A DNA stretch of 62,595 bases from Gammaproteobacteria bacterium (GCA_002401725.1 NVTW01000009.1:32258-94852); one strand, 5' to 3'. Counted from the first letter of the stretch, positions 5,952-41,651 are shown. Notes: generated by a model not told the origin, from the sequence alone. Made by a program: numbers and translations.

Positions 5952-6659
5952 ATGACCCCAGATAGACTACAACGTATTAATAATATGCTTGATATGCGCC
6001 AACCAGAACTTACTGTATGTATGGAAGGCGTTCATAAAACTCATAACTTAGCCGCGGTGGTGCGTTCGTGTGATGCGGTTGGTGTAAGTGATGTGCATGT
6101 AGTGTGGAAAAATGAAGAAATGGAAGTACGCGGTGGCAGTGCTGCGGGTAGTCAAAATTGGATCAAAGTTCATAATTACAATAAAACGGCTGATGCTATC
6201 GCGGAATTAAAACGCCAAAATATGCAAGTGTTAGTGACTAATTTATCGAACACCGCGGTAGATTTTCGTGACATTGATTACACTAAACCTACCGCTATTA
6301 TTTTAGGACAAGAAAAGTTTGGTGCCTCAGAAGTTGCACTAGAGTTAGCCGATCAAGACATTATTATTCCTATGGTGGGTATGGTGCAATCACTTAATGT
6401 TTCTGTCGCTTGTTCAGTAACCTTGTATGAAGCACAACGCCAACGGCAATTAGCCGGTTTATACGAAACAGCGCGCATTGATCAAGCGCGCCGCCAGCAA
6501 GTATTGTTTGAAGGCGGCCATCCTATTTTTGCCGAAGCTTGCTTACGCAAAGGTTTACCTTTTCCGCACATTGATGAAGACGGACAAATTGTTGCCAGTG
6601 AACAATGGTGGCAAAAAATGCAAATGGATAAGTCAGCGTGGCAACATTTAGATGATTAA
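5952..6659 (+). CDS. trmH: tRNA (guanosine-2'-O)-methyltransferase TrmH (SpoU)
   Basis: SpoU motifs are present (HNLAAVVRSCDAVGV; IILGQEKFGAS; IPMVGMVQSLNVSVA). It holds the spoT-trmH-recG operon position as in E. coli. Confidence 0.85.
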   Translation: MTPDRLQRINNMLDMRQPELTVCMEGVHKTHNLAAVVRSCDAVGVSDVHVVWKNEEMEVRGGSAAGSQNWIKVHNYNKTADAIAELKRQNMQVLVTNLSNTAVDFRDIDYTKPTAIILGQEKFGASEVALELADQDIIIPMVGMVQSLNVSVACSVTLYEAQRQRQLAGLYETARIDQARRQQVLFEGGHPIFAEACLRKGLPFPHIDEDGQIVASEQWWQKMQMDKSAWQHLDD

Positions 6660-6661
6660 TC

Positions 6662-6786
6662 TTTACTCTTCATTCTTGAAATCTCAGCGTTATTGTCTTC
6701 ATTTTTCATCACAATCACTTAGTAAGCTAAGCTCACGTGACTCAGAACTTGACGGCTTAGCTGAGATCTCAATTATGTTGAGTAAA
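6662..6786. repeat. ~125-nt imperfect palindrome in the trmH-recG spacer
   Basis: TTTACTC (6662-6668) pairs with GAGTAAA (6780-6786). GAAATCTCAGC (6678-6688) pairs with GCTGAGATCTC (6760-6770). Confidence 0.5.
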
Positions 6787-6803
6787 CTACTGCGTAATTT
6801 TTG

Positions 6804-8939
6804 ATGAATAACCATTTACAACAGCCCACTAAACTAACCGACAAGCTTGATAATCTCGCTAAAACTCCCTTATCAGCACTTAAAGGTGTTGGCCCAAGTA
6901 TAGTCACTAAGCTTGAAAAAATAGGCTTATTATCGCTTGCCGATTTACTCTTTCATTTGCCGCTTCGTTATGAAGATAGAACGCGCGTTACCAGAATACG
7001 CGATTTAATGGCGGGTATTTCAACGAATATTATTGGCGAGGTAGTAAATAGCCAAATAGTTAATGGTAAACGCCGGATGTTAGTGGTAACACTCAATGAT
7101 GGTAGCGGTACTATTAATTTGCGATTTTTTCATTTTAGCGCCAGCCAAAAAAACAGCCTTGCTCTCGGCACAGAAATTCGTTGTTATGGTGAAATTAATC
7201 ACGGCGCGCGTGGTTTTGAAATTGTTCATCCTGAATATAAACGCCTAGATCAAGACCAAGCCATCACCCCTGTTGAAGAAACCCTCACCCCTGTTTACCC
7301 TACTACCGATGGTTTACGACAAATAACGCTACGTAATTTATCGGAACAAGCATTAAAGCGCTTAAACAATATTGAAGTCGAAGAATTATTACCACCTGAA
7401 TTTTGTCCTCACGGTTTAACGTTAACGCAAGCCCTTAAAATAGTGCATCGACCGCCGCCCGATGTTTCTATTAACTTATTAGAATTAGGTCGCCATCCAG
7501 CACAACTACGTTTAATAAAAGAAGAATTACTTGCACATAATCTAAGTATGTTAAAACTCCGCCAAAGTAGCGATGTTCATCCTGCGCGTTCTTTGGTTAT
7601 TGATAAAAAGCTTGATGAAAAATTTTTAGCTGGCTTGCCTTTTTCACCGACTAATGCCCAACAACGCGTAGTAAATGACATTCGCCTAGATCTTGCTAAA
7701 AGCCAACCAATGATGCGTTTGGTGCAAGGCGATGTTGGTTCAGGTAAAACATTAGTCGCCGCACTTACAGCATTAACTGCTATTAGCCAAGGTTTTCAGG
7801 TAGCGTTGATGGCACCAACAGAAATATTAGCAGAACAACATGCACTTAATTTTGCTCACTGGTTTGAACCACTAGGCATAAAAACCGGTTGGTTAGCCGG
7901 AAAAACTAAAGCCAAAGCACGCCGAGAAGCCTTAGCAACAATTGCCAGCGGCGAAATGCAAATGGTACTTGGCACCCATGCACTATTCCAAGAGCAAGTT
8001 AAATTTCATAATCTACAATTAATTATTATTGACGAACAGCATAGATTTGGCGTACACCAACGGTTATCGTTACGCGAAAAAGGCTCGCTCGACGGATATT
8101 ATCCTCATCAACTGATCATGACAGCAACACCTATTCCACGAACATTAGCGATGACCGCTTATGCCGATTTAGACACTTCAATTATTGACGAATTACCGCC
8201 AGGACGTACGCCAATAACCACCGTAGCGATCAGTGATAACCGCCGTGATGATGTGATCGAAAGAATTCGCCAAGCCTGCTCTAGCCCAGTTAAAGATGGA
8301 AAAAAGCGTCAAGCTTATTGGGTATGTACCTTAATTGAAGAATCTGAAGTGCTTGAATGCCAAGCTGCCGAAGATACCGCCACTTATTTGCAAGCGCAAT
8401 TAACCGAGTTAGTCATTGGATTAGTGCATGGCAGAATGAAAGCGGCAGAAAAACAAGCGGTGATGGATCGTTTTAAACAGGGTGAAGTTGATTTGTTAGT
8501 GGCAACTACAGTTATAGAAGTAGGCGTTGATGTGCCCAATGCCAGCTTAATGATAATAGAAAACCCCGAACGTTTAGGCTTAGCACAGCTACATCAACTC
8601 CGTGGTCGAGTTGGGCGCGGCGCGGTAGCCTCACATTGTGTACTAATGTATAAAAGTCCGTTATCAAAAACTGCCACTAAACGCATTAATGTGTTGCGCG
8701 AAAGTAATGACGGCTTTTATATCGCGCAAAAAGATCTAGAAATTCGCGGTCCCGGTGAAGTACTAGGCACCAAACAAACCGGCTTAGCGAATTTAAAAAT
8801 TGCTGATTTAGCACGAGATGCTGAACTTATTCCTGAAGTGCAAGAACATGCTTATTTGTTGATCAAACAATATCCGCAACATAGCCAAGCCATTATAGAT
8901 CGTTGGTTAATAAATAAAGAAAAATACGCAAACGCATAA
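6804..8939 (+). CDS. recG: ATP-dependent DNA helicase RecG
   Basis: LLFHLPLRYEDRT wedge motif, GDVGSGKT Walker A, DEQHRFG box, QLHQLRGRVGRG motif. Confidence 0.95.
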   Translation: MNNHLQQPTKLTDKLDNLAKTPLSALKGVGPSIVTKLEKIGLLSLADLLFHLPLRYEDRTRVTRIRDLMAGISTNIIGEVVNSQIVNGKRRMLVVTLNDGSGTINLRFFHFSASQKNSLALGTEIRCYGEINHGARGFEIVHPEYKRLDQDQAITPVEETLTPVYPTTDGLRQITLRNLSEQALKRLNNIEVEELLPPEFCPHGLTLTQALKIVHRPPPDVSINLLELGRHPAQLRLIKEELLAHNLSMLKLRQSSDVHPARSLVIDKKLDEKFLAGLPFSPTNAQQRVVNDIRLDLAKSQPMMRLVQGDVGSGKTLVAALTALTAISQGFQVALMAPTEILAEQHALNFAHWFEPLGIKTGWLAGKTKAKARREALATIASGEMQMVLGTHALFQEQVKFHNLQLIIIDEQHRFGVHQRLSLREKGSLDGYYPHQLIMTATPIPRTLAMTAYADLDTSIIDELPPGRTPITTVAISDNRRDDVIERIRQACSSPVKDGKKRQAYWVCTLIEESEVLECQAAEDTATYLQAQLTELVIGLVHGRMKAAEKQAVMDRFKQGEVDLLVATTVIEVGVDVPNASLMIIENPERLGLAQLHQLRGRVGRGAVASHCVLMYKSPLSKTATKRINVLRESNDGFYIAQKDLEIRGPGEVLGTKQTGLANLKIADLARDAELIPEVQEHAYLLIKQYPQHSQAIIDRWLINKEKYANA

Positions 8940-10528: not shown

Positions 10529-12178
10529 GTGCGTATTCAACGGCTTTATAAAATACTAAAAACATTTTTACAGTACGGTTTAGACGAATTAGTACCCAAA
10601 AAAATGTTACCTTGGTACGCCAAATTAGCCCGTTTTAGCTTGTTTTGGCTGCGTAATAAACATCAAAACGAAAGTACTGCACAACGATTTCGTTTAGCCA
10701 TAGAAACATTAGGCCCGGTGTTTATTAAGTTTGGCCAAATGTTATCCACTCGTCGCGATTTATTACCCCCTGATTTTTCTAATGAATTAGCCCTGCTGCA
10801 AGATAAAGTAACCCCTTACGATGGCGAACAAGCAAAACAGTTAATCATTCGCGCGATTGGCGAAGAACGCTTTAACCAACACTTTACCGATTTTAACAGC
10901 ACACCCTTAGCTTCTGCGTCTATTGCGCAAGTACATACAGCAACACTGAATATTGATGACACCCAGCACGATATAGTGATCAAAGTATTACGTCCAAATA
11001 TTAGAGAAATCATTTTAGCTGACATCAAAGTAATGTCGTTATTTGCTGGCATCGTTGCCCGTTGGCTACCCGATGGTAAACGCTTACGTCCGGTAGAAGT
11101 AGTTGAAGAATATCGCAAAACCATTATTGATGAACTTGATCTAAATCGCGAAGGCGCCAACGCAATTCAACTAAGACGTAATTTTTCGCAAGGCACCCCG
11201 GAAAGTAAAAAATATGATCACGTTTTATATGTGCCTGAAATTTACAGTGAGTTTTCCCATAAAAACGTACTCGTAATGGAACGAATTTACGGTATTGGTG
11301 TTGGTGAAATAGACGAATTACAGCGCCGCAATGTCAACATGAAATTACTTGCAGAACGTGGCGTGGAAGTATTTTTCACCCAAGTTTTTCGCGATAGTTT
11401 TTTTCATGCCGACATGCATCCGGGTAATGTTTTTGTTGATGCTACTAATCCTGACGATCCCACTTGGATCGCGATTGATTGCGGCATTGTTGGCACATTA
11501 AACAAAGAAGATAAACGTTACTTAGCTGAAAATTTTGTTGCCTTTTTTAATCGTGATTATCGTAAAGTGGCACAATTGCACGTTGACTCAGGCTGGGTAC
11601 CTAAAAATACCAGTGTTGATGAATTCGAATTTGCCATTCGTACCGTGTGCGAACCTATTTTTAATAAACCGTTAGCCGAAATTTCTTTCGGGCAAGTATT
11701 AGTTAACTTATTTAACACCGCACGACGCTTCAATATGGAAGTGCAGCCACAGCTAGTTTTATTACAAAAAACGCTGTTATATATTGAAGGCTTAGGACGC
11801 CAGCTTTATCCACAACTCGACTTATGGCAAACCGCAAAACCCTTTTTAGAAAACTGGGTAAAAGAACAAATGGGTGTAAAAGCGGTATTCAAAAAAATTA
11901 AAGACAACCTACCATTTTGGAATGAAAAACTCCCCGAAATGCCCGACTTACTTTACGACTATTTAACTACTGGTAAGCACCATCATCAACAGCAAAGTGA
12001 GTTATTAACACAACTTGCCAACCAAAACCAACGTCAACAACGCAACATCATTTTTAGTGTGCTGGGCGTCGGTTTTTTAGTGGTAAGTTCTGTTTTATAT
12101 AGTCAACAACAAATAATGATTGCAGGTGTTTGTGCCGCAATAAGTGCTCTTTTTATGCTTTCGTCGTTACGGAAATAG
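10529..12178 (+). CDS. ubiB: ubiquinone biosynthesis regulatory kinase-like protein UbiB
   Basis: [19 protein letters not shown] and [18 protein letters not shown] resemble E. coli UbiB. ABC1-kinase motif HADMHPGN. C-terminal TM helices. GTG start. Confidence 0.92.
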
Positions 12179-20595: not shown

Positions 20596-20680
20596 TGGTG
20601 GAGGGAGGTGGATTCGAACCACCGAAGGCGGAGCCGTCAGATTTACAGTCTGATCCCTTTGTCCACTCGGGAACCCCTCC
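20596..20680 (-). tRNA. tRNA-Tyr (GUA), type II with long variable arm, CCA encoded
   Basis: The reverse complement GGAGGGGTTCCCGAGTGGACAAAGGGATCAGACTGTAAATCTGACGGCTCCGCCTTCGGTGGTTCGAATCCACCTCCCTCCACCA folds as a cloverleaf. The anticodon loop is CTGTAAA. It is very similar to E. coli tRNA-Tyr. Confidence 0.95.
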
Positions 20681-21281: not shown

Positions 21282-21518
21282 CTAATCATCAACATACTTG
21301 TTTATGGTTTTTTCTAAGCATTGATTGAATGAAAACTGCATATCTTCAAATTTAAGTTTTACCTCATTAAATTCAGATGGTAATTCTGTTAAAATCTCAC
21401 TTAATACGTCTATCATTTTATCTGCTGTCGATGACGCAACTATCTCGATAACAGCCTCTAAATGTTCTTGTTGTAATTTTTTCATTGTTCTTTTTCTCCT
21501 TTGTAAGCGTAATAACAA
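21282..21518 (-). CDS. hypothetical phage protein
   Basis: 78-aa ORF, co-directional and tightly spaced with its neighbours. Confidence 0.45.
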   Translation of the reverse strand: MLLRLQRRKRTMKKLQQEHLEAVIEIVASSTADKMIDVLSEILTELPSEFNEVKLKFEDMQFSFNQCLEKTINKYVDD

Positions 21519-22636: not shown

Positions 22637-23014
22637 CTAATTTACATCAGGGTCAAAACCAAGCATGTCAATTTGTGGTAATGAATTTTCATTACGCTTT
22701 GCTTCATATTGAGACTTAACCACTCTATATATATGTTGCACAGAAACATTATGTTGTTTGGCTAACTCATTTACGTTGGTACCATTAAATTGTTGAAATA
22801 TACGGCTATGCATTATTATCGACATAAATGATCGGCCCTTCGGAAAATAAAACTGTAAGCCTGAATAGCGATCAATCATTTCTTCGCACACAGCAATCGC
22901 CAACTCTTCAGCTTGTTCATCGGTTACCGATTTATCTTTACTGATAATATCTATAACGACAGACATTAAAGTAAATAACATTTCTCCGCTGCGTTCTTGG
23001 CTAGAATCACTCAT
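22637..23014 (-). CDS. mor: Mor-family transcriptional activator
   Basis: GLQFYFPKG…IFQQFNGTNVNELAKQHNVSVQHIYRVVK is the Mor/C-family C-terminal HTH pattern. Confidence 0.82.
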   Translation of the reverse strand: MSDSSQERSGEMLFTLMSVVIDIISKDKSVTDEQAEELAIAVCEEMIDRYSGLQFYFPKGRSFMSIIMHSRIFQQFNGTNVNELAKQHNVSVQHIYRVVKSQYEAKRNENSLPQIDMLGFDPDVN

Positions 23015-29390: not shown

Positions 29391-29870
29391 TTAGTCGTTT
29401 ACCAAGCTCAGTTCGCTTTGCGGTTGATCTAAAGCACCGACGTTTTTTTGGTGAAACGCTAAATCTTCCATTAACTTTTTAATTGCATCGGTAGTTTCTT
29501 GGGCGCTTTTTAAACCTTCGGTGTGACGCATGATCAAACCAGAAACTTCAATCATAAATGCTTGTAAATCTATTAAATCGCGGTGTTCTGCTTTTCGACC
29601 TGTGGGCGCTTTCACCAATAAAAAACCTTGGCTATGCGCTAAATACTGAGTAACAAAGTTAATACCGCAAGCTTGCTCGAAAGCGATCACTTTGTTCACC
29701 GGCATTTTTGCGCTGCCTAGCCATTTATAAATTAAATCGCTGGTTTCACTTAAATGATCACCAATGCGGGCAACACTCATGTTTTTCTTTTCAATGCCAT
29801 GTTCTTTAGTGAGTTGTAATGCATGATTCATGTTGTGCGGTACAACCCGTTTCCAATAGATCTTAGTCAT
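29391..29870 (-). CDS. HTH regulator, CII-like
   Basis: MSVARIGDHLSETSDLIYKWL…FEQACGINFVTQYLA is HTH-like. It lies in the early operon. Confidence 0.5.
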   Translation of the reverse strand: MTKIYWKRVVPHNMNHALQLTKEHGIEKKNMSVARIGDHLSETSDLIYKWLGSAKMPVNKVIAFEQACGINFVTQYLAHSQGFLLVKAPTGRKAEHRDLIDLQAFMIEVSGLIMRHTEGLKSAQETTDAIKKLMEDLAFHQKNVGALDQPQSELSLVND

Positions 29871-30105
29871 TAGAAATTGCTCCCTGTGGGCGTTTCAAAA
29901 CAAACAACTGGCTTGGAATTAAAAGCTCGTATAAATTTGAATTAAGTTTTTTTTGCAAGGCGGCAATAACATGAACATCAGACAAACGAAGTCGAACAAA
30001 AATAGGCGTAAAAGCATTATTGTTAGTAAAACAATGGGGCAGCCAACAAGTAGCACTTTTAGGATTGATGATCCGAGTTTTTGTTATTGTATAAGTGGGA
30101 TTCAT
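29863..30105 (-). CDS. hypothetical phage early protein
   Basis: 80-aa ORF between ner and the CII-like gene. Confidence 0.35.
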   Translation of the reverse strand: MNPTYTITKTRIINPKSATCWLPHCFTNNNAFTPIFVRLRLSDVHVIAALQKKLNSNLYELLIPSQLFVLKRPQGAISND

Positions 30106-30120
30106 GATTTTTGTTATTCC

Positions 30121-30387
30121 TTAACTAGCCAATTGCTCTTGCCAATATTTTTCTTGTGCATCTTTACTTTGAAACTTATTTTCTTGCCTATAAAAAGCTA
30201 TCTGAGGAAAGACTATATCGATAGGTTTATTAATTGCCTTAGCAATAGCTGTAGCTATTTCTTTACTTGTGTGAGTTCCCATTGCTGTTTGACGTACAGC
30301 TGAATGAGATTTTTTTAGAACTCTAGCTATGATTGAAATAGAGCAACCATTAGCTCTTAACGCTTGTTTTATATCTTCGAATTCCAT
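30121..30387 (-). CDS. ner: Ner-like DNA-binding regulator
   Basis: MEFEDIKQALRANGCSISIIARVLKKSHSAV…IATAIAKAINKPIDIVFPQ resembles Mu Ner (…IAGLKKRKLSLSALSR…IIANALETKPEVIWPSRY). ATG 30387 has AGAGG upstream. Confidence 0.72.
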   Translation of the reverse strand: MEFEDIKQALRANGCSISIIARVLKKSHSAVRQTAMGTHTSKEIATAIAKAINKPIDIVFPQIAFYRQENKFQSKDAQEKYWQEQLAS

Positions 30388-30418
30388 ATGATACCTCTTT
30401 GAAGTTATATTAAACCTT

Positions 30419-30459
30419 GTTTGAGCTGGACTCAAACTCGAATTAAATCTCAATTGAGA
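30419..30459. promoter_or_regulatory. candidate operators in the c/ner divergent control region
   Basis: GTTTGAG-ctgga-CTCAAAC (30419-30437) and the perfect palindrome TCTCAATTGAGA (30448-30459). Both share TTGAG/CTCAA half-sites. Confidence 0.45.
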
Positions 30460-30477
30460 CGAGTATTACATCACAAA

Positions 30478-30954
30478 ATGATAGAGTCAACACTTAAATA
30501 CGCATTTGAGATGAAAGATTTTGATTTTTTTATGACGCGATTAGAATCTTTGCCTGAAAAAGCACCGTTAAAAGATAGTGATAAGGCTATTTTTCTTGGT
30601 GTAAGCCGAAGCACGTTCTCAACATGGAAATCTAGAAACAAAGTTCCGTATTATGAATTATTGCAAATGTGTTCTCACTTGCGTATTAGTATGGATTGGT
30701 TTTTTGAAGGTAAAGGTTCGCCTTATTTAGATAATAAAAAAGACAATAATTTACAGAAAACAACAGAACCTAAAGAGGAACTGTTTATTGACATGATGAA
30801 AAAAATAATACCTGAAATTGAGCGCGCGCAATTACCCATGTCTGACGAAATATTATCGGTAATGGTTAAAACTTATATGAATTTTAAAGATAAGCCTGGG
30901 GCAAACTTACCCTACATATTAAGGGCGGTTGCTGAATCACAAAGAAAATACTAA
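30478..30954 (+). CDS. CI-type phage repressor (Phage_CI_repr-like HTH)
   Basis: DKAIFLGVSRSTFSTWKSRNKVPYYELLQMCSHLRISMDWFFEGKG fits the CI-repressor HTH domain. It is divergent from ner. The start is uncertain (30421, 30478 or 30511). Confidence 0.68.
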   Translation: MIESTLKYAFEMKDFDFFMTRLESLPEKAPLKDSDKAIFLGVSRSTFSTWKSRNKVPYYELLQMCSHLRISMDWFFEGKGSPYLDNKKDNNLQKTTEPKEELFIDMMKKIIPEIERAQLPMSDEILSVMVKTYMNFKDKPGANLPYILRAVAESQRKY

Positions 30955-31030
30955 TACAGGTTATTTTATTCTTTGGCGTACATATTGCATTTTGATGACT
31001 TATTAACAAGTAAGTCAAAAAAATGGGGAT

Positions 31031-31558
31031 ATGATGAAAAAATTAATTTTAAGCGCTGTGTTGGCGTTAACCGTATTTAGTGCAGTGTCTGCAACCGTAG
31101 CAAACGAAAAGCAAGTTGCCATACAACAACTGCAACGGGCAAAAATAGTCAATATGGTGGTTGAGTTAAAACTGCCAGACGGTAGCCATATTACCGTTAA
31201 CAATATGGACTTTTGCACACCAGGAGGTTTTTATAATGGTGTGCAAGCGCTAGTATTTGGAGACGAGGCGGTTAAAGTTATGCAAGCGGGTATGGCAGCA
31301 TTATACCCAAAAGTGGGCGACAGTATTAATCGCATGTGGAATACCAAAAGCAATCCTGATGATCCGCGATTGCCCACGTATTTGATGATCCGTGAACCCG
31401 TAAACAGTAAACATAATAAAAAAGTAAAAGGAGATGCTAACAAACAACTAATTGGGCGCTTTAAATCATCAGCTAAAATTTTAAAAATAGATGATAACAC
31501 ACCAATTATCATGTCGACATGTGGGGGATATAATCATCCTGATGACAACGTGAGATAG
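31031..31558 (+). CDS. secreted protein of unknown function (moron gene 1)
   Basis: Signal peptide MMKKLILSAVLALTVFSAVSATVA. Confidence 0.6.
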   Translation: MMKKLILSAVLALTVFSAVSATVANEKQVAIQQLQRAKIVNMVVELKLPDGSHITVNNMDFCTPGGFYNGVQALVFGDEAVKVMQAGMAALYPKVGDSINRMWNTKSNPDDPRLPTYLMIREPVNSKHNKKVKGDANKQLIGRFKSSAKILKIDDNTPIIMSTCGGYNHPDDNVR

Positions 31559-31569
31559 CATAATTATGA

Positions 31570-34497
31570 ATGGGCATAAGTAAAAAAGGAATACTAATTT
31601 ATGTTTTAATGTTCACTTGCTTTTTGTGTAATAACAGTTGGGCAAGTGAACTTTCTATTACATTACCTAGAACAATAACCCAAGATAGCGATGGCTTTAT
31701 TTGGGTTGGTACACAAACCAACGTAAAACGTTACGACGGCCATCATTTTACCTCGCTAGCCAAGCACTATGGCTATATCAATAAAGTAATAAACCACCAA
31801 CAAATAACCTATGTTGCGGCAAGTAAAGCGGTTGTTGCTATAAACAAGCAATTACAAGAAACCGTACTTTTTCAAGCACAACCTAATAATGAAATACTCG
31901 ATTTAGTTTTGTCTGAACATTATTTATATGTATTACTGCAAAAACAACTTATTAGCATTAATTTAAATAAAACAAGTAAGCCACATTATGTTTTGTACTC
32001 ATTTAACTCGATAACAAATGGCAGAATTACTGCATTAAATAAAGAAATATGTTTTGCTAATTTAAAAAAGTTTACGTGTATCAATAGTAAAACAAAAGAC
32101 ACTTTTACCCTTAATTCACCTGAAACTATTCGCGATCTATTAGTAGACAAAACCCGCACTAGCGATATTATCATTGCGACGCAACATTCGCTTTATCAAT
32201 ACGATTATTATTCTCGCTATTTAACGCTTGTTAAACACTTCAACAATAATAATAAAATAACCAAAGTAGCACGAGTAGCTAATACCAGCACTAAGCTATG
32301 GTTAGTAATAAACAACCAAATAAAACGCTTTAATTTGGCCACTAAAAAATTTGAAAAACATAATTTCCAACGCCAATTAACCAGTAGAATATATGATATT
32401 TATCAAAGTAGTGATAATACGCTTTGGCTTGCAGCAACTACCTTAGAAAAATATCCACAAACAAACATTCTAGTTTCAAATATTAAAAATTTAACGCAAA
32501 CATCAGGTATGGCGTGGTTTATTCATTATTTTGCTCAATATTTAATAATAGATGCGAATGGTGTTCATCGTTTAAATAACCAAACGCTAGCAATTTCACC
32601 GTATAAAAATATAAATAAATTAACTCAAGGCAATTTATACAGCGCATTAGCATTAAATGGCGATTTGTTTGTTGGCGGCTATTACGGTTTATTTAAGATA
32701 GAGCCTAACGACGATACCGTAATTAATTTAAGCGCGTTAATTAATTACGATACAGTACAATGTATACGACCAATAAATAGTTACCAACTTGCCATTTGTA
32801 CTGCGAATAACGGTGTTTATTTTGTTAACACTAAAAATAACACCGCGAAAAAATATTTTAGTAACCCAAGTATTGTCAGTATTGTTGATTTTTTACTTGA
32901 AAAAAATGACGTTAATAATGTGTGGATAGCAACGGATGTGGGTTTGTATCATTTAAGTAATAAACATTTAACTCGCTACTTGCCGCAATCTCATGTTATT
33001 CGCTTAGTACAGCAAAATAACACGCTATATGCGGCTACCATAGGCGATGGTTTATATAAAATTAAACGATTTGATCAAGCGGTACAAATTAACAAATTAA
33101 ATGGTATTGGTGAGCGCGTTAACGACATTGTTTTAAAAGATAACATGCTTACGTTTACAACCGCACTTGGCATGGGCACTTACAACACTATAACAGCACA
33201 AGTAACAACAGCGCCGCTAGGATACAGTGTTGGTAGAATACTAGTTGATGTAAACCAGCAAAAAGCAATTAGTAGTAACGGAAAATTAATTACTTGGACC
33301 AGCCACTCTCAAGCGCCGTTGAAAAAGAAACAAAGCCACTTACATTTAAGTAATTATTTAGTTAATGGTAAAAATGCTTTACTTAAAACACCGTTAGATG
33401 ATAACGATTTTGTTGAATTAATTTTCAGCACCAATACCTACAGAGCAACAGAACTACATACATTTAGAACAAAAATAAATGATCACCCATGGAATCAATT
33501 TTCATCAATAAATCAACTAAGCTTTTTGCCTAGTTGGGGTGAAAACACAATAATAATCCAAGCGAAAAATGGCGATACAACCTTAACTAAAAAAATACAA
33601 TTTTATGTAAATTACCCATGGTACGTGAGTAATATTGCTAAGCTATTTTATGGTTTATTACTATTGTATTTTTGCTATGCCTTATTGTTATGGTTTGTTA
33701 ATAATAAACGTAAATTCATTAAGCAACAAAATAAGCATTTAAGTGCTATAGAAAAAATAAAGAGCAAAAACAAACAAAATTTAGCTAAGCTTATTAAAAA
33801 ATCAAACGCTATTATATTAAATAATAAACGCAGTATTGAACTAAAAAACACCCAAGTTATGTCAAAAATACTGGATGCAAACACATACATTTGTGAGATA
33901 GACTATCAGCCGATAGTCGAAAAAATAGATAGCATTTCAGCGTTAATACTGATCGGTCAATATGACAAAGCCATCGACAATGCAGAAACATTATCTAACG
34001 ACATACAAATAACTGCAGCACTCGCCGCACCCGACATAATAACCAACACCGACATTGTATCGGCGCTACAACTGTTAATTATGTCTAAACTTTCTCAAAA
34101 ATTTTTGTTACATATTGAGTACACTAACACGCCAATATTTTTGCCAGAAACTGAAAAAAATAGTCATATCATCAGATGTTTATATAAATGTATTTACGAG
34201 TTGCTAACCTACATAATAGAAGAATTGTCGATATCAACCATTAATATGTCTTTGACACAAGTACAAAACAGTCTATCTTTAACTATCGATATTGAAGATA
34301 ATCGTTTGACGTTAGCCAGTTTTAATGATCAAAATTTGTCTTTATACCAAGTGGCATTACTCGCGTATAAATTAGAAGCAACACTGGCAGTTGAGTCACA
34401 ACAAAACAAAAATATTTCTATCGTTTTAACTATACCGCTTGGTGTACAAAACCAAGTCAACTTTATAACAAACAATGTTAATTTTAAGGATGAATAA
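31570..34497 (+). CDS. transmembrane sensor-like protein: periplasmic beta-propeller (Reg_prop-type repeats) + Y_Y_Y domain + TM + degenerate kinase-like C-terminus (moron gene 2)
   Basis: ITQDSDGFIWVGTQTNVKRYDGHHF and later repeats (LWLAATT, VWIATDVGLYHL, LYAATIGDGLYKI). A Y_Y_Y-like segment ends …KIQFYVNYPWY. TM helix IAKLFYGLLLLYFCYALLLWFV. No H-box or N/G boxes are seen in the last ~270 aa. Confidence 0.65.
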   Translation: MGISKKGILIYVLMFTCFLCNNSWASELSITLPRTITQDSDGFIWVGTQTNVKRYDGHHFTSLAKHYGYINKVINHQQITYVAASKAVVAINKQLQETVLFQAQPNNEILDLVLSEHYLYVLLQKQLISINLNKTSKPHYVLYSFNSITNGRITALNKEICFANLKKFTCINSKTKDTFTLNSPETIRDLLVDKTRTSDIIIATQHSLYQYDYYSRYLTLVKHFNNNNKITKVARVANTSTKLWLVINNQIKRFNLATKKFEKHNFQRQLTSRIYDIYQSSDNTLWLAATTLEKYPQTNILVSNIKNLTQTSGMAWFIHYFAQYLIIDANGVHRLNNQTLAISPYKNINKLTQGNLYSALALNGDLFVGGYYGLFKIEPNDDTVINLSALINYDTVQCIRPINSYQLAICTANNGVYFVNTKNNTAKKYFSNPSIVSIVDFLLEKNDVNNVWIATDVGLYHLSNKHLTRYLPQSHVIRLVQQNNTLYAATIGDGLYKIKRFDQAVQINKLNGIGERVNDIVLKDNMLTFTTALGMGTYNTITAQVTTAPLGYSVGRILVDVNQQKAISSNGKLITWTSHSQAPLKKKQSHLHLSNYLVNGKNALLKTPLDDNDFVELIFSTNTYRATELHTFRTKINDHPWNQFSSINQLSFLPSWGENTIIIQAKNGDTTLTKKIQFYVNYPWYVSNIAKLFYGLLLLYFCYALLLWFVNNKRKFIKQQNKHLSAIEKIKSKNKQNLAKLIKKSNAIILNNKRSIELKNTQVMSKILDANTYICEIDYQPIVEKIDSISALILIGQYDKAIDNAETLSNDIQITAALAAPDIITNTDIVSALQLLIMSKLSQKFLLHIEYTNTPIFLPETEKNSHIIRCLYKCIYELLTYIIEELSISTINMSLTQVQNSLSLTIDIEDNRLTLASFNDQNLSLYQVALLAYKLEATLAVESQQNKNISIVLTIPLGVQNQVNFITNNVNFKDE

Positions 34498-34838
34498 TGA
34501 ATAAAGCAACCTGCCTAATTTCAGTAATTTTGATGTTATGTGCTTGCGCAAATCAGGTAACCACTGGACAAAGAGTTTTTTTAACTCCGGCTAATTCTGC
34601 ACATTTACCCAACTGTGAATTATTAGGACAAGTACAAGTTGATGCGAAAATTGCTGGTTTGTGGGATCACAATCAACAAGTAATGGAAATTAAAAACCGT
34701 TTACGCGACGCAGCAGCTAACCAATACCCTACGGCCGATACTGTAACCCATTCAGATTTAAATATTGGCTTGTGGTCTAATCCTGATGCGCAAGCAATGG
34801 GCACCGTTTTTAAATGTTTTGCTAAAAACAAAACTTAA
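34497..34838 (+). CDS. lipoprotein, DUF4156-like (moron gene 3)
   Basis: Lipobox region ILMLCAC. C..LG.V…AA…ADTV…G.VFKC pattern. ATGA overlap with gene 2. Confidence 0.6.
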   Translation: MNKATCLISVILMLCACANQVTTGQRVFLTPANSAHLPNCELLGQVQVDAKIAGLWDHNQQVMEIKNRLRDAAANQYPTADTVTHSDLNIGLWSNPDAQAMGTVFKCFAKNKT

Positions 34839-34907
34839 CATCACACAATAATACTTTACTAACTCAGGTTATTATCATCTTAGCTCTCATGCCGCCACAC
34901 TGGTGGC

Positions 34908-35498
34908 ATGAAAACATTCAACGTAAACACACTACATCCGGTTGCTTGCTTTGCCATTGAATTAATCATTGGTAAAGAAGGTGGCTACAGCGATGACAAA
35001 ACCGACCAAGGTGGCAAAACCAACTTTGGCATATCTGACGCGCGCGATGGACAATGCGATGGGCTAATCGATATTAACAACGATGGCCAAGGCGACATTG
35101 TGGTTAAAAATTTAACCTATGCGCAAGCGGCACAAATTTATTATAACGACTACTGGTTAAAGAATTGTTGCGAGCAATTACACCCCGCTTTAGCTTTAAC
35201 GGTATTCGATTGCGCAGTCAATCAAGGCGGTAGCTTTGCTCGTAAAGCGCTACAGCGACTCGCTAAAACCACTATCGACGGCATCATTGGTCCTAAAACC
35301 ATTGCCACGGTTAATGCTATTGCGGTGTTAACGCTACTTGAAAAATTTAACGAAGCACGTTTAAAGCGTTATCGCCGCATTGTTAAGCGCAATAAATCAC
35401 AACAAAAATATATCAAGGGTTGGCTAAATCGTTTGCGCGATATCGACGAACGCTGCGTTGCTATTGCTACCTTTGGTTTTACCGATGAACAGCCTTAA
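34908..35498 (+). CDS. endolysin, GH108 lysozyme + PG_binding_3
   Basis: KEGGYSDDKTDQGGKTNFGI…YYNDYW…FDCAVNQG…IDGIIGPKT is the GH108/PG_binding_3 signature. Confidence 0.85.
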   Translation: MKTFNVNTLHPVACFAIELIIGKEGGYSDDKTDQGGKTNFGISDARDGQCDGLIDINNDGQGDIVVKNLTYAQAAQIYYNDYWLKNCCEQLHPALALTVFDCAVNQGGSFARKALQRLAKTTIDGIIGPKTIATVNAIAVLTLLEKFNEARLKRYRRIVKRNKSQQKYIKGWLNRLRDIDERCVAIATFGFTDEQP

Positions 35499-35763
35499 AC
35501 CTAACGGTATTGCTTTGCGTCTTTGTTACGAACAGGGCGAAACTGCGCATAGTCGGGGCTTGCATCTTAACGATTGCGTGTACCGCAAAACCGATAAACG
35601 CCTTGCTTGGCAAAATGGTTTTCGTGCAGCTGCCCAACAAATACCTCGTTACGCGGGCAATGTTGAAAACCAACAGCGTGGCCAACACTGGCTTAAACAC
35701 ATTAAACAACAATTAAAAACTCATTCACATCATAAAAATGGAGATAACTCATGTCTGTGTTAG
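35485..35763 (+). CDS. Rmf/CrpP-fold small protein
   Basis: CYEQGETAHSRGLHLNDCVYRKTDKRLAWQNGFRAA resembles ribosome modulation factor (…GYQAGIAGRSKEMCPYQ…RSQWLGGWREA). Confidence 0.45.
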   Translation: MNSLKPNGIALRLCYEQGETAHSRGLHLNDCVYRKTDKRLAWQNGFRAAAQQIPRYAGNVENQQRGQHWLKHIKQQLKTHSHHKNGDNSCLC

Positions 35764-41533: not shown

Positions 41534-41651
41534 TCGTAAGCCATTAGATTTTACTAATCTAGGTTATTATATTCTCATGCAATAAGCCGTTATCTTTTTG
41601 GTACTGAAAAATTATTTTACTTAATTATTTCAATTACCGGAGAGATAAACC

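Follow-up and report, generated by a model that had tools for sequence, protein, structure and literature searches.

Temperate phages can monitor their surroundings by means of receptors in the cytoplasm, known examples being quorum-sensing receptors and those of the arbitrium system. The modules concerned, such as VqmA-phi/Qtip of phage VP882 and AimR/AimP of arbitrium, are accessory to the phage. Accessory genes may also lie downstream of the repressor gene on the same strand, as in cI-rexA-rexB of phage lambda, where one of the products is membrane-bound. Sensing across the bacterial membrane, in turn, is the task of sensor kinases. Hybrid two-component sensors of Bacteroides (BT4663, BT4673 and BT3049; PDB entries 4A2L/4A2M, 3OTT/3VA6 and 3V9F) combine tandem Reg_prop propellers with an immunoglobulin (Ig)-like domain of the Y_Y_Y type and a membrane helix, and kinases of the HisKA_3 class (NarX/DesK type), like their dead relatives RcsD and DivL, have a layout of coiled coil, DHp and CA domains. 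Likenesses to all of these systems are found in two adjacent genes, here called g1 and g2, of a prophage in Gammaproteobacteria bacterium. They were examined in a 62,595-nucleotide (nt) stretch of its DNA (GCA_002401725.1 NVTW01000009.1:32258-94852), which is referred to as the window and from whose first letter all positions are counted. By position, the closest described counterpart of the locus is lambda cI-rexAB; by architecture, the closest are the Bacteroides hybrid sensors together with the HisKA_3 kinases, and the pair could couple an external cue to the phage switch as the quorum-sensing and arbitrium modules do.

It is highly probable that g1 and g2 together make up an envelope module of two genes, belonging to the immunity regions of a small number of temperate phages and composed of an exported protein (g1) and a transmembrane protein with a dead kinase core (g2), and that a third gene, g3, is separate cargo. 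All three lie between a CI-type repressor gene of the PF07022 family and a gene for a GH108 endolysin, on the repressor's strand, and are annotated at NCBI as PCI62027-29, hypothetical proteins of a Gammaproteobacteria metagenome-assembled genome:

31031-31558, plus strand: g1, 175 amino acids (aa)
31570-34497, plus strand: g2, 975 aa
34497-34838, plus strand: g3, 113 aa, predicted DUF4156-like lipoprotein, swappable cargo

Re-reading reproduced the three co-directional open reading frames (ORFs) exactly at these coordinates, and since each has conserved homologues (52-82 % identity for g1, 34-63 % for g2 and 49-77 % for g3), they are not chance ORFs. The initial annotation of the window had presented them as a unit of three genes for envelope-directed products, situated in the immunity region on the repressor's strand and accessory to the Mu-like core. 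The placement stands, as do the accessory status and the predicted envelope targeting (a signal in g1, a Reg_prop repeat and a single transmembrane helix in g2, and a lipobox-like N-terminus in g3). The unit of three does not: g1 and g2 are a fixed pair, the slot after g2 is filled by non-homologous genes or empty in sister phages, and the relatives of g3 stand alone in mobile or defence-rich DNA of hosts.

The pair is rare, with about 20 occurrences found in billions of proteins. Among 5.8 billion protein clusters there are 23 relatives of g1 and four full-length relatives of g2, and a pattern scan for g1 in one genome per species (185,579 species) gave two loci apiece in Pleionea sediminis and Aliikangiella maris and none in other species. 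The GenBank phage collection, searched with both DNA and protein, yielded no relatives of the region or of g2. The pair was found in four IMG/VR contigs, and a survey of transposase relatives added L039, L040, L057 and L063 (numbers with L denote loci or contigs compared, those with P individual proteins). In every locus g1 is followed directly by g2, in L001-L012 as well as in 8 of 8 newly fetched loci, 7 of which have a repressor homologue upstream; overall, a repressor-type gene lies directly upstream of g1 on the same strand in all loci but one decayed copy. Three phage backbones carry this arrangement: the B3-like lineage of the window, a second Mu-like lineage with an rve-type transposase (L011, L018-20), and a lambdoid integrase-type prophage in Pleionea. 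The regulator upstream of the pair in Pleionea was considered as a PF07022 repressor and rejected, as it is not homologous to these repressors. The position of the pair is constant across phages diverged to about 35 % identity and in the unrelated integrase-type prophage, and intact g2 ORFs of 850-975 aa persist across lineages diverged to less than 30 % identity. In Aliikangiella maris, L010/L016 and L015 are two divergent mini-islands in which the repressor-g1-g2 arrangement is intact but little else is left apart from GemA and a few early ORFs, the g2 copies having preserved ATP-binding motifs. L015 also carries a DprA-like and PRTase-like gene pair at 6059-7235 on the minus strand.

Accessory status was surveyed in the 80 nearest transposase relatives in IMG/VR, 33 of which have a readable interval between repressor and endolysin. 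The g1-g2 pair occupies four of these 33 intervals, the other 29 having different contents, among which small membrane proteins and lipoproteins predominate. Accessory, old and specific to phages, the pair is bound to the immunity position. Every full-length relative of g2 that was found is phage-associated and most are catalytically degenerate, which speaks against the possibility, raised with the initial annotation, that the homologues are ordinary host two-component sensors captured by chance. Conservation of the gene neighbourhood, which had been suggested as a check, was found for g1 and g2, but it does not extend to g3, and the loci are phage-associated rather than outside prophages.

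The product of g1 is a protein of a new family, predicted to be secreted and periplasmic. The family alignment shows a hydrophobic signal at the N-terminus, two cysteines that never vary and a DPRLPT motif that is likewise invariant. No match was obtained in Pfam, NCBIfam, PHROG or PADLOC, and nothing among PDB sequences matched the g1 profile; its AlphaFold2 (AF2) model, of moderate confidence with a predicted local distance difference test (pLDDT) score of 70, has no fold match in the PDB or BFVD at E <= 0.001. Across phages whose transposases are 47-49 % identical, g1 is 52-82 % identical, and is more conserved than the transposase.

That g2 spans the inner membrane, with a tandem-propeller and Ig-like sensor outside and a coiled coil and kinase-derived core inside, is well supported by sequence comparison. 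Its predicted parts are:

31570-31644, plus strand: aa 1-25, signal peptide or membrane anchor, the hydrophobic N-terminus being kept in P0002 and P0004
31645-33624, plus strand: aa 26-685, periplasmic sensor with a pair of beta-propeller-like regions and, after them, an Ig-like sandwich of the Y_Y_Y type
33631-33702, plus strand: aa 688-711, transmembrane helix by hydropathy, where a long helix of the AF2 model begins
33703-34497, plus strand: aa 712-975, cytoplasmic module with coiled-coil linker, DHp-like helices and degenerate HATPase_c-like domain

Calls of the g2 start differ between 31570 (975 aa, the form called by NCBI) and 31609 (962 aa); the long form is the more likely one, as the N-terminus is conserved. 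The segment at aa 688-711 is the single internal transmembrane helix by hydropathy. The sole Pfam match above cut-off is one Reg_prop repeat (PF07494, 33 bits against a cut-off of 20.4), which upholds the propeller half of the beta-propeller/Y_Y_Y description originally given. For the other half, Pfam Y_Y_Y (PF07495) gave no match, and support for that region comes from profile-profile alignment: hhalign of g2 against hybrid two-component sensors reached a probability of 99.9 % over columns 22-954, running through the Y_Y_Y-type region. The g2 family profile also matches the solved Bacteroides sensor structures 4A2L, 3OTT and 3V9F. The AF2 model of g2, made from a 4-sequence alignment and used only for secondary structure and family-level fold matches, has the order of two propeller-like beta regions, a beta-sandwich (aa 614-680, at low confidence), a membrane helix that continues as a long helix, more helices and a beta-alpha-beta-beta-alpha-beta-beta unit. 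Its best Foldseek matches in the PDB are Bacteroides sensor domains, at E of about 1e-20 with TM-scores of only 0.2-0.28. Conservation differs by part, being 74-91 % in blade 1 (aa 26-60) and 37-66 % in the periplasmic part of g2, 30-69 % in the kinase core and 16-43 % in the linker. As the identities of g1 and of blade 1 exceed those of the linker and kinase core, selection appears to be strongest on the periplasmic parts.

The cytoplasmic module, about 265 aa long, was absent from the earlier description of g2. Judged by this module, g2 is a sensor kinase turned pseudo-kinase, with predicted descent from the HisKA_3 class. Alignment of the module by hhalign with a HisKA+HATPase_c region gave a probability of 96.2 % (E 2e-9). 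The DHp-like helical region extends over about aa 780-840 and the HATPase_c-like domain over about aa 848-956, where the AF2 secondary structure has a beta-alpha-beta-beta-alpha-beta-beta pattern, so that a homologous DHp/CA fold is supported by both hhalign and the model. The canonical N (Asn), G1 (DxGxG) and G2 (GxGxG) boxes were compared in an alignment with canonical HisKA_3 kinases. No invariant His is present in the cytoplasmic part of g2, the H-box column being K, R or N in the window lineage, and all three boxes are lost in the window protein and its close relatives, the window protein having ELLTYIIEE, IEDNRL and QNLSLY at those positions; nor does the window protein give a Pfam HATPase_c or HisKA match above gathering score. 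The boxes are intact in L063, L039/L057 and L010/L015 (both Aliikangiella copies), and the Pfam HATPase_c cut-off is passed by L010 (35.4 bits) and P0095 (44.9 bits), L007 reaching only 16.6 bits. In at least three lineages the catalytic motifs have been lost and the protein retained.

A hidden Markov model (HMM) search with the cytoplasmic profile through 1.84 billion representative proteins gave 10 matches in total. Five of these were scanned with Pfam: P0092 and P0095 have the propeller architecture of the family itself, P0096 and P0097 are canonical HisKA_3+HATPase_c kinases, and P0098 is a 126-aa HATPase_c fragment. The helix YKCIYELL of the kinase core is invariant in the window lineage. 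No response regulator, that is, no gene with a REC domain, was found near g2 in any locus examined. Because the His and the ATP-binding boxes are lost and no response regulator lies nearby, the output of g2 would be expected to pass through protein contact or conformation.

The third gene shares one nucleotide with the stop codon of g2, the junction being TAATG and not the ATGA coupling first described. Its product has a lipobox-like N-terminus (LCAC). The DUF4156-like assignment of g3 can be kept in part: g3 itself scores 20.9 bits against DUF4156 (PF13698), below the cut-off of 28.9, but two homologues of about 70-76 % identity do carry PF13698. The g3 family has 38 members (49-77 % identity) from Pseudoalteromonas, Marinobacter and metagenomes. 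Two homologues could be placed, and both are stand-alone genes (L021 6001-6333; L023/L024 6001-6333), one adjoining a group II intron reverse transcriptase, a transposase and an integrase, the other lying between a JetD/LlaJI-AAA_5 restriction cluster and Cas9. Searches of PADLOC, PHROGs and NCBIfam gave nothing for g3, as they had given nothing for g1 and g2, and among the relatives compared g3 is unique to the window phage. The slot after g2 that holds this 113-aa lipoprotein in the window is occupied by a 93-aa protein with multiple transmembrane segments in L003, by lipoproteins of 214, 146 and 222 aa in L005, L006 and L019/L020, respectively, and by a convergent gene for a 262-aa secreted protein in L011/L018, and it is empty in L007. 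A single family of slot proteins was considered and rejected, there being no homology between the proteins of different phages. By these comparisons g3 is an unrelated predicted lipoprotein in a variable cargo slot, with a history separate from that of g1-g2. The interval between repressor and endolysin also holds a putative lipoprotein in phage JBD25. A recurrent antisense pair stands there in L026-L034, L049, L051 and L067 (IMG/VR), one gene encoding a protein of 168-182 aa with 3-4 transmembrane segments and the other a protein of 103-131 aa whose N-terminus is hydrophobic.

The prophage belongs to the transposable siphoviruses of B3/Mu-like type, its early operon (transposase, MuB-like ATPase, Gam, GemA and Mor) being directed leftward and its late genes rightward; the Mor-family activator is encoded at 22637-23014. 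Judged by the transposase, the closest isolated phages are those of Pseudomonas (31-37 % identity). Terminal inverted repeats were sought for the prophage, with pairs at chance level as the only outcome; a tRNA-Tyr gene (20596-20680, minus strand) lies at its left edge, just before the first phage ORFs. The neighbouring genes are:

30121-30453, minus strand: Ner-like helix-turn-helix gene (HTH_35 at 25.6 bits), heading the leftward early operon
30421-30954, plus strand: CI-type repressor gene (PF07022 at 34.9 bits and PHROG repressor families; NCBI PCI62026)
34908-35498, plus strand: gene for a GH108 endolysin with PG_binding_3 domain (Pfam scan), downstream boundary of the locus

The Ner-like gene is likely to start at 30387, relatives being called as 88 aa, and its position is kept in L001-L008. 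The repressor is 177 aa long if read from TTG at 30421, or 158 aa from ATG at 30478, as called by NCBI, and the Pfam scan did not detect an S24 peptidase domain in it. In base composition, g2 has 31.7 % G+C, g1 39.8 % and g3 38.3 %, with a mean of 33.5 % for the three-gene region; the late genes have 42.4 %, and the early genes and host flanks about 37 %. The AT-richness pointed out initially is real but was overstated, since only 24 % of the region's 60-nt lines are at or below 27 % G+C and the repressor and Ner-like genes, at 33 %, are as low as g2. The low G+C of g2 and the repressor is seen again across relatives. Being recurrent and common to the repressor, it is no mark of recent insertion, and an insertion of recent date is further at odds with the same position of the pair in diverged phages and in the integrase-type prophage.

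Signals that might govern the expression of the pair are found around the gene for the repressor, before g1 and further downstream:

30420-30436: palindrome TTTGAGCTGGACTCAAA between the divergent Ner-like and repressor genes, a candidate operator read from the sequence
30948-30971, plus strand: conserved element, copy 1, directly upstream of g1
34856-34879, plus strand: conserved element, copy 2, upstream of the endolysin gene
41551-41574, plus strand: conserved element, copy 3, upstream of an 87-aa ORF and the major capsid gene
30972-31041, plus strand: predicted g1 leader hairpin, with an apical hairpin at 30996-31017 and a basal stem pairing the g1 AUG (31031) with an upstream CAU
34887-34911, plus strand: predicted endolysin leader hairpin of 11 base pairs, with the endolysin AUG in its 3' arm (z-score -4.5)

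The conserved element, [AT]TACTAA-N-CAGGTTA[AT]T, has three matches in the window at up to one mismatch, against 0.21 expected, and none of 100 shuffles reached three. All three copies are intergenic and on the plus strand. The same positions are occupied in L003, L005, L006 and L007 (the capsid-side equivalent of L006 being at 21349), and relatives that do not have g1-g2 (L041, L048 and L060) carry the element only upstream of the endolysin gene. The distant member L063 has its own motif variant upstream of g1 and at the endolysin promoter site, the g1-upstream region sharing one 11-mer with regulatory sites elsewhere in the locus, namely with the endolysin promoter site. The element is probably a late-type promoter element dependent on a Mor-family activator, and since the element of the lysis and head operons also precedes g1, late-type expression of g1 is likely in the window lineage. 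The start codons of g1 and of the endolysin gene are each predicted to be masked by a leader hairpin. The g1 leader has a minimum free energy of -22 kcal/mol (z-score -4.0), and the leaders of relatives have the same architecture with different apical stems; the endolysin hairpin is kept in nine phages, including phages without g1-g2, with compensatory changes in 4 of 10 consensus pairs. Within the g1 leader, TGGCGTACATATTGCA (30974-30989, plus strand) conforms to the -24/-12 spacing of sigma-54 and has been retained in six phages. As this pattern is not enriched in the window (two matches against 2.4 expected), the fit may be coincidence, and TGGCGTACATATTGCA may simply derive from the lysis leader.

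Other evidence links the pair to transcription from the repressor gene. The gap between repressor and g1 is only 19-25 nt in L010, L011 and L039, which implies an operon in these lineages. In the window, no intrinsic terminator is predicted between the repressor and endolysin genes, and the arrangement suggests co-transcription of repressor and g1-g2, with read-through from the repressor gene possible. The position on the repressor's strand thus agrees with the expression in lysogens that had been proposed, but this is not the sole option, given the copy of the lysis and head-operon element before g1. Scans for consensus promoters and terminators stayed at background level except for one hairpin in L011. 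This terminator-like hairpin with a T-run lies at 10667-10682 on the plus strand, 13 nt after the g2 stop, and has no predicted equivalent in the window. An Rfam scan of 29800-35600 matched nothing.

We tentatively propose that g1-g2 protect the envelope of cells that carry or produce the phage. This role is ranked first because the slot is a preferred site of envelope cargo, constraint is greatest on the periplasmic parts and catalysis is dispensable, and because expression is apparently both lysogenic and late and decayed islands keep repressor-g1-g2; the occurrence of g3-like lipoproteins in defence islands is a further point in its favour. Under this proposal, g1 and the periplasmic domain of g2, which are conserved together, would act together in the periplasm, perhaps upon a glycan-like ligand by analogy with BT4663. 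The dead kinase core would be a scaffold for dimerisation or transduction with its output by protein contact, phosphotransfer being impossible, and superinfection exclusion or receptor control would shield the envelope from further phage. The pair would be expressed both in lysogeny, through an operon or read-through with the repressor, and in the late phase, from its own copy of the element. Taken as a whole, in identity, expression and envelope protection, this explanation falls somewhat short of an even chance. Several points weigh against it. There is no effector domain in g1-g2, the PADLOC defence models gave no significant match for g1, g2 or g3, and the function is assigned from context and not from a homologue of known function. 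The AF2 model of g2 is poor (pLDDT 57, predicted TM-score 0.34), and the conserved element is read as a promoter from its sequence. The invariant YKCIYELL helix hints at a cytoplasmic partner, and we know of no exclusion protein nearly as elaborate as the 975-aa signal-transducer architecture of g2.

The pair might instead be a sensory input to the lysis-lysogeny switch, an envelope cue causing the dead kinase core to bind, sequester or release the CI-type repressor or a partner and so bringing about SOS-independent induction. This is possible, if on balance unlikely. The pair strictly adjoins the repressor gene on the same strand in three phage backbones, a repressor without the S24 self-cleavage domain needs another route to induction, and g2 keeps the full layout of a signal transducer and conserved cytoplasmic motifs despite its lost catalysis. 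A mirror-tree-style comparison of the repressor, g1 and the parts of g2 gave mixed signals: between L005 and L006 the cytoplasmic part of g2 (33 %) tracks the repressor (33 %) and not the periplasmic part (59 %), but between L019 and L020 the repressors are 53 % and the cytoplasmic parts of g2 85 % identical. With an upstream regulator in Pleionea that is not homologous to PF07022, moreover, the linkage is to a position and not to one repressor fold, a late-type element before g1 is ill-suited to a device for maintaining or inducing lysogeny, and the islands retain repressor-g1-g2 with no lytic genes to control. A more specific form of this idea, in which g1-g2 would be the first phage-encoded transmembrane receptor (a periplasmic co-sensor with a pseudo-histidine-kinase), reading an envelope or extracellular and probably glycan-like cue and contacting a non-cleavable CI-type repressor, is unlikely; it would amount to a novel, SOS-independent type of input to the choice between lysis and lysogeny in Gram-negative hosts. 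Retention in the decayed islands is also what a benefit to the host would suggest, and this favours a hijack of host signalling as lysogenic conversion, in which a host HisKA_3 kinase or its NarL/LuxR-type regulator is titrated by the pseudo-kinase or forms heterodimers with it. The kinase core of g2 does descend from the HisKA_3 class, and loss of catalysis with the fold kept is typical of regulatory pseudo-kinases (RcsD, DivL and the RetS type). Such a hijack is nonetheless improbable, as would be its proposed outcome, a reprogramming of envelope, motility or biofilm genes that might include the phage receptor: divergence of the DHp/CA region has gone so far that canonical kinases come only just within reach of an exhaustive HMM search (E 1e-4 to 1e-5), making heterodimerisation unlikely, no host partner was identified, and the tightly conserved secreted g1 is left unexplained.

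Two further explanations start from the neighbourhood and the composition of the genes. A late role associated with lysis, in which periplasmic sensing of superinfection or envelope state times or inhibits lysis in the manner of the antiholin RI of T4, would fit the position of the pair directly upstream of the lysis cassette in Mu-like lineages and the cis element and masked start-codon design that g1 and the endolysin gene have in common. It is quite improbable, however, as the pair is not beside lysis genes in the Pleionea prophage or the L011/L018 lineage, is operonic with the repressor in several lineages and is retained in islands without lysis genes. That the three genes are a recent AT-rich moron, or that g2 is a captured host sensor decaying without function, is very improbable. 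The G+C of g2 below that of the late genes, its degenerate catalytic motifs and the accessory status of the pair among relatives could be so read, yet intact ORFs of 850-975 aa persist across lineages less than 30 % identical, g1 is more conserved than the transposase, the position is the same in three backbones, the low G+C is common to the repressor and recurs in relatives, and g3 has a separate history. Conservation and synteny already contradict this explanation, which is largely refuted.

Neither a repressor-g1-g2 module nor a periplasm-facing membrane sensor in a phage immunity region was found described in the literature searched. If the pair acts on the switch, it would represent a novel form of control over induction; should it act on the envelope, it would constitute a new principle of exclusion or defence derived from a disarmed sensor kinase. 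The repeated loss of catalysis with retention of the protein offers a clean natural example of the passage from kinase to pseudo-kinase, and the element together with the predicted masked start-codon design before g1 and the endolysin gene opens late gene control in B3-like transposable phages to experimental test.

The likeness of g3 is to the exclusion lipoproteins Llp of T5 and Cor of phi80 and N15, which are small lipoproteins encoded as single-gene cargo near the immunity and lysis region. In contrast to these, to which it has no homology, g3 belongs to a DUF4156-like family of mainly stand-alone host genes in mobile or defence-rich DNA. The modules VqmA-phi/Qtip and AimR/AimP consist of cytoplasmic transcription factors with known ligands and with anti-repressor or regulator outputs, whereas g2 is a predicted transmembrane pseudo-kinase whose link to the repressor is proposed. 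The rexA and rexB genes of lambda have no sequence or domain similarity to g1-g2, and the Rex system combines a cytoplasmic sensor with an ion-channel-like effector, while the sensor of g1-g2 would face the periplasm and no effector is evident. The rexB gene has a late-phase promoter, P_LIT, to which the possible second, late-phase promoter of g1 would be analogous.

The Bacteroides hybrid sensors are the best matches of g2 both by sequence profile and by fold, at an identity of only 12-22 %. They differ in having a HisKA+HATPase+REC+AraC output in place of the degenerate DHp/CA module, which is all that g2 has, and g2 is encoded by a gammaproteobacterial phage together with a dedicated secreted partner. 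The HisKA_3+HATPase_c kinases are, among the matches scanned, the only full-length proteins outside the family that the cytoplasmic profile of g2 reaches. Unlike them, the window g2 has no His, N, G1 or G2 box, and no cognate response regulator is present in any locus; unlike RcsD, it has no detected HPt domain. Set beside these systems, g2 is, to judge from its sequence, made of known sensor-kinase parts in a new form, carried by phage and catalytically dead, and g1 is its partner from a new family.

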